This document shows positions 41,381-54,842 of a stretch of 55,239 nt of DNA, piece after piece. Position numbers and translations under genes: made by a program. The stretch's first letter is position 1, and the number at the start of each line of letters is the position of its first letter. The notes beneath the pieces were generated by a model, which worked only from the letters and a program-made list of their open reading frames with translations, ran no database searches and had not been told where the DNA came from. The DNA is from Candidatus Methylomirabilota bacterium (GTDB lineage Bacteria > Methylomirabilota > Methylomirabilia > Rokubacteriales > CSP1-6): NCBI GenBank assembly GCA_035260325.1, contig DATFVL010000062.1:1-55239 (forward strand), in the 5' to 3' direction.

Positions 41381-41737
41381 TCACCGCCGATAGCGCGTCT
41401 CGAAGAGCAGCACCCCGTGCGGCGAGCGGTACGGGCCGTGGCGCATGCCGGGCGGCCGGCAGGCGTACATCCCCGCGCTGAACGTCCGGCCCTTGCCGAG
41501 ATCGATCACGGAGCCCTCGAGGATCCAGACCTCCTCCCAGAAGTCGTGGGCGATCGTGTCCGGGGTTTCCGTGCCTGGCGCCATGCGGAGGAGGCGTGTG
41601 ACGTCGCCGGACAGTGGGTCACGGCTCAGGATTTTCTCCTCGATCCCCGGGCCCCCGGCGCCCGTGTCGGGCGAGCCCGCGACGGGCCGCCACGGCAGGT
41701 CGTCGGGGCGGAAGAACTCGAGCTCGGGCTTCGGCAC
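41381..41737 (-). CDS. cupin domain protein (ChrR-like cupin_7 by resemblance)
   Basis: GTG 41737 lies 2 nt after the redoxin stop. HDFWEEVWILEGSVIDLGKGRTFSAGMYACRPPGMRHGP. Confidence 0.7.
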   Translation of the reverse strand: MPKPELEFFRPDDLPWRPVAGSPDTGAGGPGIEEKILSRDPLSGDVTRLLRMAPGTETPDTIAHDFWEEVWILEGSVIDLGKGRTFSAGMYACRPPGMRHGPYRSPHGVLLFETRYRR

Positions 41738-41739
41738 CC

Positions 41740-42282
41740 TCAGGGCTTCTTGGGGAGCGCCAGCAGGTCCTGGACGAGCTTGCGGGCCGCCGGCTTGTCC
41801 CAGTCCCGCGGGCCCACCATGCGGGCGATCAGACGCCCCTGGCGGTCGACGAGGTACGCGGTCGGCGGGCCGAAGACGCCATAGGCCTTGCCGGTCACGT
41901 CACCCCTCTCGTCCAGCAGCACGGGCGCGACGTAGCCGCGCTCGGCGACCGTGCGCCTGACGAGCGCCGGATCCTCACGGAAGCTGATCAGCCGCACCTC
42001 GAGCCCCTGCTTCCTGAGCTCCCCGTATAGCCGGTTGACGGAAGGTAACTCCTCCCGGCAGTCCGGTCACCACGTGGTCCAGAAGACGAGGAGCACCACC
42101 TTGCCGCGCAGGTCGGCGAGGGTGACGGTTTTCCCTTGGAGGTCCGGCAGGGCGAAGTCCGGCGCGGGCTTCGGCGGGTCGTAGCGCTGGATGCCGAGGC
42201 TCGCAAAGTCCGCCGCCGCGGCGCCGGCGGCGAACGCCAGGAGCGCCAGGACGAGTGCGCCCGCGCCGAGGCGCCGCGCCAT
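41740..42282 (-). CDS. exported TlpA/ResA-like thiol:disulfide oxidoreductase, predicted selenoprotein (UxxC; TGA 42067-42069 read as Sec)
   Basis: ORFs 42067-42282 and 41740-41997 are in the same frame. Hand translation across the gap gives [45 protein letters not shown]. The family motif is FWxxWCxxC. Signal peptide [24 protein letters not shown]. Confidence 0.75.
42031..42066 (-). promoter_or_regulatory. SECIS-like stem-loop immediately 3' of the redoxin UGA
   Basis: RNA CCGG-AC-UG-C-CGGGAGG-AGUUA-CCUUCCG-U-CA-A-CCGG. There is a 7-bp apical stem (one G-U pair), loop AGUUA starting 19 nt after the U of UGA, plus 2-bp and 4-bp lower stems. Confidence 0.45.
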
Positions 42283-42833
42283 CAGGCGCCCGATGCCTTG
42301 AAGGCCGCCAGGACCTCCTCAGGGTTCAGGAGATCGAGCGCGTTGTCCTGGATCTTGATGTACTTGACGATGCCGTTCCGATCGATGATGAAATAGGTGC
42401 GCTTCGCGTACCGGAAGATCGGGCTCTTCTCGTCCGTGACCATCGCGCCCCACACCGGCAGCATCTGGCGGCGGAAGTCGGACAGGAGGAGGTGCTTGAT
42501 CGGGTTCTGCTTGGCCCACCCGGCGAGCGTCGCCTGGTGGTCAGCGCTCACGCCCACGACCTGGGCGCCCGCGGCCTCGAACTGCGCGTGGAGCGCGTCG
42601 AAGCCGAGGATCTCCTTCGTTCAGGTGGGGGTGAAGGCCTGGATCACGGTGTACAGGACGACCGGGCCCTTGGCCGTGAGCTCGGAGAGCTTGACGGGCT
42701 TGCCGTCCACGCCGAGCAGCGCGAAGTCGGGCGCCTTCTGGCCCACCTCGAGCGCGCTCGCGGCGCCGGCGGAGACCAGGACGACGAGCAGGCCCCAGAG
42801 CAGGGCGTGCACGACTGAACGCTTGGATCGCAT
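42282..42833 (-). CDS. exported peroxiredoxin (AhpC/TSA-BCP type), predicted selenoprotein (TGA 42621-42623 read as Sec at the peroxidatic position)
   Basis: ORFs 42621-42833 and 42282-42557 are in the same frame. Hand translation gives [43 protein letters not shown], where the family has (F)TP(T/G)C(T/S)xE. Signal peptide [34 protein letters not shown] precedes ATG 42833. Confidence 0.75.
42573..42605 (-). promoter_or_regulatory. SECIS-candidate stem-loop 3' of the peroxiredoxin UGA
   Basis: RNA GGCUUCGA-C-GCGC-UCCAC-GCGC-AGU-UCGAGGCC. There is an 8-bp lower stem (one G-U pair), a 4-bp upper stem, and an apical loop 31 nt after the U of UGA. The loop lacks the usual G, so confidence is lower. 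Confidence 0.35.
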
Positions 42834-42896
42834 GGGAGGCCTCCTTGGGCTGACTACGGGATGAACGGCCGGCGCCGTCGCCGGGTTCCCCTCACA

Positions 42897-43922
42897 TCAT
42901 CGCTTGCCGGTCAATTCGCGCCGCACGAGCGCGGCGCCCGCGGCCAGCCCCGCGAGCTTCTGGTTGCACATGTACCGCGGCGACCAGCCGAAGCCGCAGT
43001 CGGGGTTGACCGTGAGCTTCTCCGGCGGGCAGACCTGGAGCACCCTGCGGACGCGGCGCGCCACGTCCTCGGCCGTGTCCTGCGCGAAGCCCTTGACGTC
43101 CACGACGCCGGCGCCGAGCTCGCGCCCCTCGCCGTACCGCTTCCAGAGATCGAGCTCGGCCAGCTCGCGGCTCGCGAACTCCAGCACGAACTGGTGGGCG
43201 CGCGATTTCAGGATCCCCGGGAAGTAGGGCTCGTAGGTCCGCTGGAAGCGCGAGCGACCGAACCGGTTGCCGAAGCAAACGTGGAAGGCGAGCTTCACGT
43301 CGATCCCCGCCGTGGCGAGGTTGAACAGGCGCGCCATCTCCTCCCCGGAGACGTTGCCGCGCGCCGGCTCATCGATCTGGATGAGGTCGGCGCCCGCGGC
43401 CACGAGACCGTGGAGCTCCTGATTGATGACCTCGGCGAAGCGCTCGGCCACGTCCACGACACCCGTGTAGACCTTGCCCGGATGGATCCGCGAGCCGAAC
43501 GTCAACGGGCCCGCGCACGTCGCCTTGGTGTGCCGCGTCGTGTGCTTCTTGAGGTACTCGAACTCGCGCACGATGCCGAGCCCGGCGGGGGGCGTCTCGA
43601 TGCGCCCGACCGCCTCGTAGCGCGTCTGCTGGTCGTACCCCCAGGGACCCGCCTTGCGCCGCACGGGGAGCGGCTCGATGCCCTTGATGATCGCGTAGTA
43701 CGAGTCAACGTAGCCGTCGAGCCGGCGGACCTCGCCGTCGGTGAGGATGTCGATGCCGGCGGTCTCCATGTCGCGGACCGCCGTGTGCACGGCGTCGTCG
43801 AGCATCTCGTCGAGGTCGCCGGGCCCGAGCTCCCCCTGTTCCCAGGCCTTGACGGCGGCGAACCACCAGCCCGGCCTGCCGTGGGAGCCCACGACGGCGG
43901 TCGGGATCAGCGGCAGCGTCAT
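42897..43922 (-). CDS. cobalamin-independent methionine synthase (MetE C-terminal domain-like / methionine synthase II family)
   Basis: LIPTAVVGSHGRPGWW..DILTDGEVRR..ADLIQIDEPA..AFHVCFGN..VNPDCGFG. Confidence 0.8.
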   Translation of the reverse strand: MTLPLIPTAVVGSHGRPGWWFAAVKAWEQGELGPGDLDEMLDDAVHTAVRDMETAGIDILTDGEVRRLDGYVDSYYAIIKGIEPLPVRRKAGPWGYDQQTRYEAVGRIETPPAGLGIVREFEYLKKHTTRHTKATCAGPLTFGSRIHPGKVYTGVVDVAERFAEVINQELHGLVAAGADLIQIDEPARGNVSGEEMARLFNLATAGIDVKLAFHVCFGNRFGRSRFQRTYEPYFPGILKSRAHQFVLEFASRELAELDLWKRYGEGRELGAGVVDVKGFAQDTAEDVARRVRRVLQVCPPEKLTVNPDCGFGWSPRYMCNQKLAGLAAGAALVRRELTGKR

Positions 43923-54074: not shown

Positions 54075-54842
54075 TCACATGCTGTAGAGGCGCCAGACGC
54101 CGTCGTCGTCGATGACGAAGCGGACCTCGTAGGACATGGTGCGGCCCTCCTGGCTCCGCAGCATTTCGTAGATCGCGATCCCGGAGTACTGCTCGACGAA
54201 GCGGATCGAGGTCAGCGTCGTGTCCACGTCGAGCGCCCCGGCGAGGGTGCGGAAGACGCCCTCGTATTTCCGGCGCGCGCCGCTGTGGACGCAGTCGAGG
54301 GCGCCGGCGACGTCGCCGCGGCGCAGCGCGTCCTTGAGGTCGTTCCAGCGCGTGTCGAGGTCGCGCTCGAACTGCGCCCGCGAGAAGACCTCGACGCGAG
54401 CGCTGAGGCTGGTCACGCGCCCGCCCGACTCGTGGATGCGGACGGTGAAGTCGTAGCGGCCCGGCTGCGGGTACGTGTGGTCCCTCAGTACGCCGCCGTA
54501 CGTGGTCTCCGTCCATTCGGCGGTGCCGTCGCCGTCGGCGTCGAACTCGATACGGACGGGATTCTCCACGGGGGAAAAGAGCCACTTCAGCCGCACCCGG
54601 AGCGGCGCCGGACCGGTGGACGGCTGGACCTGGAACGGCGGGATGTTCTCGCGCTTGAAGAACTCGATGAGCTCGGCGTCGCTCGGCGGTCCCTTGGCGC
54701 TCTGGCGCGCGGCGGCGAGCCGCTCGAGCCACGAGGCCGGCCCGCTGAACGTCGGGCAGGCCGCCGCGGCGCTCGTCGCGCCGGCGAGCGTGAGGGCGAG
54801 CGCGGCGACGGCCCACAGGGCGGCGAGGCGCGTCGGCGTCAC
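54075..54842 (-). CDS. secreted/lipoprotein with a PKD-like domain and a C-terminal NTF2-like region
   Basis: GTG 54842 overlaps the upstream stop (GTGA). Signal LAALWAVAALALTLAGATSAAAAC. PKD-like PAPLRVRL..FDADGDGT..HTYPQPGRYDFTVRI. Confidence 0.6.
   Translation of the reverse strand: MTPTRLAALWAVAALALTLAGATSAAAACPTFSGPASWLERLAAARQSAKGPPSDAELIEFFKRENIPPFQVQPSTGPAPLRVRLKWLFSPVENPVRIEFDADGDGTAEWTETTYGGVLRDHTYPQPGRYDFTVRIHESGGRVTSLSARVEVFSRAQFERDLDTRWNDLKDALRRGDVAGALDCVHSGARRKYEGVFRTLAGALDVDTTLTSIRFVEQYSGIAIYEMLRSQEGRTMSYEVRFVIDDDGVWRLYSM

Follow-up and report, generated by a model that had tools for sequence, protein, structure and literature searches.

On the minus strand of contig DATFVL010000062.1 from a Candidatus Methylomirabilota bacterium (55,239 nucleotides, analysed over its full length and called the window below), a gene for a predicted exported protein of the peroxiredoxin (Prx) fold carries an in-frame TGA at the codon where its family has the peroxidatic cysteine. 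The question raised by this locus is whether ribosomes stop at that codon or read it and, if it is read, which amino acid is inserted. The evidence presented here leads us to the view that the UGA is very probably decoded as selenocysteine (Sec) by SelB and tRNA-Sec in response to a signal in the downstream coding RNA, yielding a 183-residue precursor that, once its predicted Sec-type signal peptide is cleaved off, would be a thioredoxin-fold enzyme of the AhpC/TSA family in the envelope or periplasm.

One reading frame on both sides of the TGA

Translation of the minus strand from 42833 to 42279 gives one frame that starts with MRSK, ends with KASGA* and has a single internal stop, the TGA at 42623-42621. 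A first-pass annotation, made from the sequence alone, had listed open reading frames at 42621-42833 and 42282-42557 and placed them in one frame; translation confirms that they are the two halves of one gene, open past the TGA to the stop at 42282. When Cys is substituted for the TGA, PF00578 (AhpC-TSA) covers residues 30-159 with its full model (1-124 of 124; E-value 1.2e-29, 103 bits against a cutoff of 26), indicating that the domain runs across the TGA. The best matches among solved structures are all BCP proteins (2cx3, 3hjp and 2ywn); in the first of these, BCP of A. pernix, the segment AFSPVCTKE aligns with AFTPT[TGA]TKE. The spanning domain and this alignment bear out the earlier assignment of the TGA to the peroxidatic Cys position of AhpC/TSA proteins, and sequence similarity places the product closest to the BCP/PrxQ branch of that family.

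The G+C content of the window is 69-76% throughout. A six-frame scan for TGA codons with coding-like composition on both sides returned three sites in the 55 kb, two of which are the TGA of the Prx gene and that of the adjoining redoxin gene. The third, TGA 54075-54077 on the minus strand, was rejected as a recoding site, being an ordinary stop with the ATG of the next gene (54047) following in the same frame nine codons later.

A protein search gave 894 relatives, and 160 loci were fetched, 80 from species-representative genomes and 80 from metagenome contigs, the former drawn almost wholly from metagenome-assembled genomes (MAGs) of Rokubacteria/Methylomirabilota. Every one of the 80 genome loci and of the 80 metagenome contigs has TGA at the aligned codon, followed by an open frame of conserved length, about 112 codons (110-115). 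Loss of the frame downstream of the TGA in related genomes had been named at the outset as evidence that would speak against recoding; TGA and frame are kept together in 160 of 160 loci. Glu+3 and Arg+74, counted from the TGA codon, are invariant in 161 sequences, and many residues that do not vary among the 80 genome sequences, such as Asp+27 and Arg+51, are encoded by several synonymous codons, a pattern suggesting that the protein stretch after the TGA is under purifying selection.

Two conserved hairpins and the Cys-type homologues

The coding RNA after the TGA contains two hairpins, described below in alignment columns (column 1 is the T of the TGA, and the window position is 42624 minus the column number). 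The proximal one, hairpin 1, had been proposed earlier as a stem of 8 bp plus 4 bp at 42573-42605; it is present, with its loop about 29-33 nt after the UGA (loop start at about 28-30 nt) and the base of its stem 14 nt 3' of the UGA, and a covarying pair found with RNAalifold, 18-52, lengthens it to 42606-42572. The apical loop is variable (CCU, GCU, ACC, CAU, UCCAC and others), while an A-G-U bulge on the 3' side is conserved. Taken alone, the 67-nt region has a folding energy of −31.4 kcal/mol (z = −2.2 relative to shuffled sequences), a modest value, and the weight of the evidence rests on the comparison across genomes. Over 77 sequences, 94% of the cells in columns 19-26/44-51 and 28-31/37-40 pair, compared with 29-54% when the partners are slid, and the observed covariation score was reached by none of 500 shuffles. 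Among 143 unique sequences, pair 18-52 is C-G in 101 and G-C in 24, pair 29-39 is C-G in 79 and G-C in 26, pair 22-48 is U-A in 79, U-G in 49, C-G in 3 and A-U in 3, and pair 19-51 is G-C in 128 and A-U in 6. Some of these compensatory changes swap amino acids jointly, as in E-A-A-L-P-Q versus E-G-M-L-A-Q and F-E…F-E versus I-E…F-N.

Hairpin 2, missed in the first-pass annotation, starts only 3 nt past hairpin 1. All seven of its pairs are formed in 130 of the 143 unique sequences, with pair 57-73 being C-G in 125 and U-A in 6; its loop is GGUCG in 114, and G64 and U65 of that loop are invariant. Both hairpins lie within the minimum free energy (MFE) fold in 121 of the 143. Codon choice is also restricted in the two stems. 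Four-fold codons normally show 1.0-1.7 bits of synonymous entropy in the genome-locus set, where Ala+19 and Val+22, in the hairpin 2 stem, show 0 bits, Ala+19 being always GCC and Val+22 almost always GTG; the other stem codons Gly+6 (0.27 bits), Ala+9 (0.19), Ala+16 (0.19) and Gly+23 (0.23) are similarly restricted, and the loop or linker codons Ala+10 (1.37), Leu+11 (1.02) and Ala+17 (1.47) are free. Over 158 sequences, four-fold codons whose third base falls in a stem average 0.43 bits versus 1.21 elsewhere (Mann-Whitney p = 3.7e-6). The covariation in orthologs that had been suggested as a check on the hairpin is thus found as compensatory substitutions accompanied by suppressed synonymous variation.

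Homologues with Cys at the Sec position provide a control. They are rare: seven (P0014, P0019, P0020, P0022 and P0121-P0123), 40-60% identical to the Sec forms, have TGC or TGT at the aligned codon, in the motifs FAALC, KDC, TTPC, KTC and TTC, and the metagenome scan, seeded with Cys-type proteins to gather Cys orthologues, gave the 80 Sec-type contigs instead. Columns 16-55 fold at a mean of −24.1 kcal/mol (range −16.8 to −30.2) in the 77 Sec forms of the genome set and at −5.7 to −15.9 kcal/mol in the seven Cys forms, which make 0-2 of the four upper-stem pairs. The first-pass annotation had also proposed asking whether Cys-containing orthologs lack the hairpin; a comparable hairpin is indeed lacking, with no full upper stem and a weaker fold in all seven.

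The link between hairpin and TGA can be followed within single operons. In three loci (L166, L167 and L168) the Prx is of the Cys type and has no hairpin 1 upper stem, while the adjoining redoxin gene keeps W-TGA-xxC (TGA at 1676, 4765 and 3773, respectively) and a hairpin with an AGUU loop, and these organisms evidently read UGA in the redoxin gene. The pattern indicates that the strong fold goes with the UGA itself rather than with a given genome or operon, and that Sec-to-Cys exchange has taken place gene by gene inside one operon.

What the UGA encodes and which hairpin signals it

The conserved TGA and frame, the covarying hairpin and the Cys homologues without a comparable hairpin support the earlier proposal of Sec decoding. 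Recoding signals of this kind indicate that the UGA is read through and not which residue is inserted: Cys might be supplied by tRNA-ReC (selC*) with a SelB-like factor, since tRNA-ReC systems with recoding of UGA that depends on a Sec insertion sequence (SECIS) have been described (PMC13582414), or Trp by hairpin-stimulated near-cognate read-through. We regard such non-Sec recoding as very improbable. The site is the redox nucleophile, where Sec is known to replace Cys, and Prx proteins with TxxU and Prx-like proteins with UxxC are established selenoprotein families (PMC13188914). Moreover, a plain TGC would suffice to encode Cys, as the rare Cys forms illustrate, so that TGA in 160 of 160 loci argues for an advantage of TGA itself, and a Trp in the catalytic position would leave the enzyme inactive.

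Readings in which the UGA is not recoded at all are less probable still. Gene callers split the Prx gene into pieces of 70 and 89 residues, and the Sec machinery was not found in the window, as might be expected if the TGA were a true nonsense codon in a dead gene, or an assembly or sequencing error; such a reading is effectively refuted by the recurrence of the same TGA in 160 loci that are independent of one another and come from many samples and assemblers, and by the strong constraint on the protein after the TGA, which coexists with abundant synonymous change and covarying RNA helices. Genome-wide reassignment of TGA to Trp or Gly (code 4 or 25) might be suggested by several full-length JGI proteins (P0001-P0006 and P0010) that read FTPTWTKE; these same translations overrun the true stop (…KASW…), and the Trp at both codons shows that TGA was translated under an alternative code (code 4). 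The Prx gene itself ends in TGA in 144 of 159 loci, which argues that TGA is not reassigned genome-wide, and only two in-frame TGAs in a coding context occur in the 55 kb, both at redox Cys positions, leaving this explanation, too, effectively refuted. The conserved TGA, the constraint and the TGA terminators together thus rule out pseudogene, assembly error and genome-wide reassignment. It is equally hard to credit that ribosomes stop at the UGA and restart, giving an exported 70-residue peptide and a cytoplasmic fragment of 91-112 residues. Databases hold hundreds of 'proteins' of 102-113 residues starting just after the TGA, yet these starts are gene-caller choices whose positions vary, and the first possible start in the window is a GTG 22 codons past the TGA. 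We reject the split-gene reading because the Prx fold needs both halves, as PF00578 spans the TGA, and neither piece has the catalytic nucleophile.

A number of observations weigh against Sec decoding, or against the roles proposed for the RNA and the protein, and are collected in this and the next paragraph. The window and about 1 Mb of related loci yielded no selA, selB, selD or tRNA-Sec: tblastn searches of the window and loci with E. coli SelA, SelB and SelD (NC_000913.3) gave no matches, ARAGORN found nothing in the window and four tRNAs, none of them tRNA-Sec, in 164 loci plus the window, and no sel genes lie within 10 kb of the operon. These results indicate that the Sec machinery is not linked to the Prx-redoxin operon. 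A scan of the window at Rfam gathering thresholds gave no family match. The published model of the bacterial SECIS (bSECIS) calls for an apical loop of 3-9 nt with a G in the first two loop positions, placed 16-37 nt from the UGA (PMC13188914). Hairpin 1 fits the distance and hairpin 2 fits the loop rule in every sequence; the whole model is satisfied by neither, as a G stands within the first two loop positions of hairpin 1 in only 39 of 143 sequences, and the loop of hairpin 2 lies 59 nt after the UGA, beyond the permitted range. Part of the lower stem of hairpin 1 arises automatically, since two conserved Phe-Glu/Asp dipeptides are encoded with a palindromic TTCGA. Among the Cys forms, L081 retains 8 of 9 lower-stem pairs of hairpin 1, and the stem of hairpin 2 is intact in two that are closely related to each other, with the loop GCUCG, which has no G-U; the other five form 5 of its 7 pairs.

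On the protein side, Pro, Thr, Cys and Arg count as universal in peroxiredoxins (PMC3322552). Three of the four are in essence retained, the Cys being replaced by the probable Sec. The catalytic Arg+74, in the motif KR-A/T-YF, is found in 161 of 161 sequences, and Thr or Ser stands at −3 in 145 (Thr, as in the window, in 138 and Ser in 7). The remaining 16 have G, A or N at −3, and the Pro of PxxxTxxC (position −7; window 42642-42644, minus strand) is replaced throughout, by Ile in 149 and Val in 12 of the 161; this position aligns with the Pro of 2cx3, and the Cys forms have Leu, Met, Val or Gln there. With the Pro missing and position −3 variable, peroxidase chemistry is not assured, and Prx-like proteins such as Caulobacter PrxL can have no detectable activity (PMC3322552). 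The term peroxiredoxin is accordingly used here for a fold and family predicted from sequence, and peroxidase activity of the product is plausible. No NCBIfam model reaches its cutoff for the product (PrxU, NF040737, 31.4 bits against 270; Prx-SUH, NF045827, 35.8 against 298), and the gene calls covering 10 kb to each side include no gene of the DsbD/CcdA/ScsB type.

Use of Sec in the phylum has indirect support. One Methylomirabilota MAG has 63 predicted selenoprotein genes (cited in the review PMC13188914), the phylum is reported to possess group 4 hydrogenases of the Sec type (PMC13582414), and two catalytic-site UGAs with putative SECIS elements are conserved across the 160 loci.

Which of the two Prx hairpins SelB would contact is a separate matter. 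The proposal that the hairpin at 42573-42605 is the signal stands in so far as that hairpin is conserved and covaries; it falls short in that the canonical G-G/U loop is carried by the second hairpin. If hairpin 1 were compact at the mRNA entrance, the hairpin 2 loop would be some 25 nt from the UGA along the path, and for this reason hairpin 2 seems to us the likelier site of SelB contact, with hairpin 1, itself conserved, as a putative adaptor. The variable-loop hairpin 1 would then stand at the mRNA entrance while the UGA is in the A site. About 20 unique sequences carry a different proximal hairpin, CUCCUCG-GCUU-CGAGGAG (columns 13-19/24-30), with its loop 16 nt after the UGA; it is found at the Sec-type loci L085, L089, L099, L108, L111, L112, L121, L128, L131, L134, L137 and L148. 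In this subgroup hairpin 1 is weakened and hairpin 2 sometimes degraded, which may reflect SECIS turnover within the Prx family. The full picture, in which hairpin 1 acts as a spacer or adaptor presenting the GGU loop of hairpin 2 to SelB, the subgroup records SECIS turnover, and the operon is a selenium-based counterpart of TlpA/PprX, is offered tentatively and is, taken as a whole, rather doubtful. A bipartite recoding element, if real, would be an arrangement outside the current bSECIS model.

The bSECIS of Escherichia coli fdhF is, like the structure in the Prx gene, a stem-loop directly after the UGA inside the open reading frame; its loop sequence is GGUC, which is contained in the GGUCG loop of hairpin 2. 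Compared with fdhF and with the bSECIS consensus, the Prx gene differs in having two adjacent conserved hairpins, the proximal of which has a variable loop, usually without the G expected in the first two loop positions.

The predicted enzyme, its operon and its annotation

The features of the locus are collected in Table 1. At the N-terminus of the Prx gene product a basic N-region precedes a hydrophobic core and an A-S-A cleavage site, without a twin-arginine motif, a layout shared by its homologues; the N-terminus of the redoxin is built in a similar way, with an AxA site following its basic N-region and hydrophobic core, and both proteins are predicted from these signal peptides to be exported. 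In the mature Prx, Sec71 appears to be the sole redox residue, with no resolving Cys, and a second Cys is absent in 160 of 161 sequences.

Table 1. Features of the Prx-redoxin locus in window coordinates
Feature	Position	Strand	Remarks
Gene for a predicted exported Prx-fold selenoprotein	42282..42833	minus	complete; 183 codons, Sec codon 71, ATG at 42833, terminal TGA 42284-42282
Putative Shine-Dalgarno sequence AAGGAGG	42840..42846	minus	6 nt 5' of the ATG; read from sequence, function inferred
Predicted Sec-type (export) signal peptide	42753..42833	minus	mature start LEVGQ; from sequence and homologue N-termini
In-frame TGA, very probably Sec, peroxidatic position F-T-P-T-U-T-K-E	42621..42623	minus	TGA in 160/160 loci; TGC/TGT in 7 Cys-type
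Hairpin 1	42572..42606	minus	columns 18-26/44-52 (9 bp) and 28-31/37-40 (4 bp); pairing, covariation, synonymous constraint
Hairpin 2	42550..42568	minus	7-bp stem, columns 56-62/68-74, loop GGUCG, columns 63-67; candidate SelB-binding loop
TlpA/ResA-like redoxin, predicted exported, W-U-P-D-C	41740..42282	minus	downstream of Prx, translationally coupled, TGATG overlap
Redoxin in-frame TGA (putative Sec), first position of UxxC	42067..42069	minus	FWTTW-[TGA]-PDC
Redoxin bSECIS-like hairpin CGGGAGG-AGUUA-CCUUCCG	42039..42057	minus	fold and conservation

The adjacent redoxin gene with a TGA at its catalytic site, also noted in the first-pass annotation, is confirmed. It matches PF00578/Redoxin, and its best NCBIfam models, ResA and TlpA, are both below cutoff. 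Its hairpin, conserved in the 54 genome loci that have both genes, takes the family form CGGRAGG-AGUUR-CCUUCCG; the loop starts 16 nt past the UGA, G-U stands second and third in it, and the published bSECIS model is fitted fully. The loop is AGUU plus a purine with the sole exception of L168, and compensatory stem changes occur in L051, L057 and L064. The MFE of the redoxin downstream region is not significant on its own (z = +0.26), so the support for this hairpin comes from conservation and compensatory changes, not from the fold of the single sequence.

The two genes suggest an envelope peroxide-reduction pair like Caulobacter TlpA/PprX, in which TlpA reduces the exported PrxQ-type PprX of Caulobacter crescentus (PMC3322552). 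By this analogy the selenolate of Sec71 would attack the peroxide and become a selenenic acid, which the co-transcribed, translationally coupled and exported TlpA-like U-x-x-C redoxin would recycle; the redoxin would itself be reduced by a DsbD/CcdA/ScsB-type electron transporter of the membrane, encoded elsewhere, in parallel with the Caulobacter chain from ScsB through TlpA to PprX. The Caulobacter system combines an exported PrxQ-type Prx with an exported TlpA-like reductant of the thioredoxin fold (PMC3322552), and the present pair is predicted to share this arrangement. The two systems differ in that here both nucleophiles would be Sec and the genes are adjacent and coupled, the partnership being proposed from gene order only, and in that PprX keeps the Pro, Thr, Cys and Arg as well as a resolving Cys, whereas the present Prx is without the Pro and without a resolving Cys.

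Among known Sec peroxiredoxins is PrxU of Eubacterium acidaminophilum (Sohling et al. 2001, listed in PMC13188914), which shares with the present Prx the AhpC/TSA fold, a Sec in T-x-x-U and a stem-loop after the UGA within the coding sequence. The present Prx is not its orthologue, being BCP/PrxQ-like, with a predicted signal peptide, without a resolving Cys and with Ile or Val in place of the Pro. The UxxC Prx-like and thiol:disulfide interchange selenoproteins (the families of Zhang and Gladyshev, PMC13188914) accommodate the redoxin neighbour, not the Prx gene.

The Prx family is widespread in Rokubacteria/Methylomirabilota and almost entirely of the Sec type, and its database record is poor. 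Most of the top relatives are C-terminal fragments of 102-113 residues beginning a few residues after the TGA, as is typical when gene callers halt at one and the same codon in every genome. In NCBI and other calls the gene is reduced to a C-terminal 'redoxin domain-containing protein' of about 109 residues (P0011 and about 100 further fragments), and in the calls for the window's own contigs (L170/L171) both selenoprotein genes are split, into 70 plus 89 and 71 plus 85 residues. Since no NCBIfam model captures the family, a dedicated one would mend hundreds of annotations.

The literature already covers Sec peroxiredoxins and UxxC redoxins and describes the phylum as rich in selenoproteins, and current understanding is not overturned. 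What the locus adds is a Sec-dominated yet mis-annotated family, a two-hairpin region that departs from the bSECIS consensus, a missing Pro and the implied selenium-based operon. The Sec Prx and the Sec TlpA-like redoxin point to a selenium-dependent peroxide defence of the envelope in abundant soil bacteria, and the two constrained hairpins, the Cys relatives and the alternative-hairpin subgroup form a natural data set on recognition by SelB outside E. coli.

The Prx and redoxin genes are paired, with about 551 nt between the two TGAs, in 54 of the 80 genome loci, and the pair is also present at Cys-type loci. In the window the operon is followed by a Cupin_7 gene (41381-41737, minus strand) and preceded by a short MetE-like (Meth_synt_2) gene (42897-43922, minus strand), with a branched-chain amino-acid ABC transporter also upstream; the same flanking gene order is found on two other contigs with this exact region (JGI 3300026551 and WNFH01001985.1). 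Near-identical copies of the operon also occur on contigs that binning has assigned to Solibacteraceae, Acidoferrum, Verrucomicrobiia, Binatia, Dormiibacterota and the archaeon Nitrosotalea (L006, L054, L061, L064, L074 and L080), which are more likely to be mis-binned Rokubacteria contigs than the result of wide horizontal transfer.

A scan of the approximately 1 Mb of loci for in-frame TGAs, aimed at a lineage-wide SECIS consensus, returned one further case, a TlpA-like UxxC redoxin paralogue in L008 with the motif FWHST-[TGA]-PYC, which lies on the minus strand at a distance of about 2.8 kb from the end of the locus in its reverse complement. It is followed by the hairpin CUCGAGGG-AGUUG-CCCUCGA, whose AGUUG loop, belonging to a paralogue, is not independent evidence.

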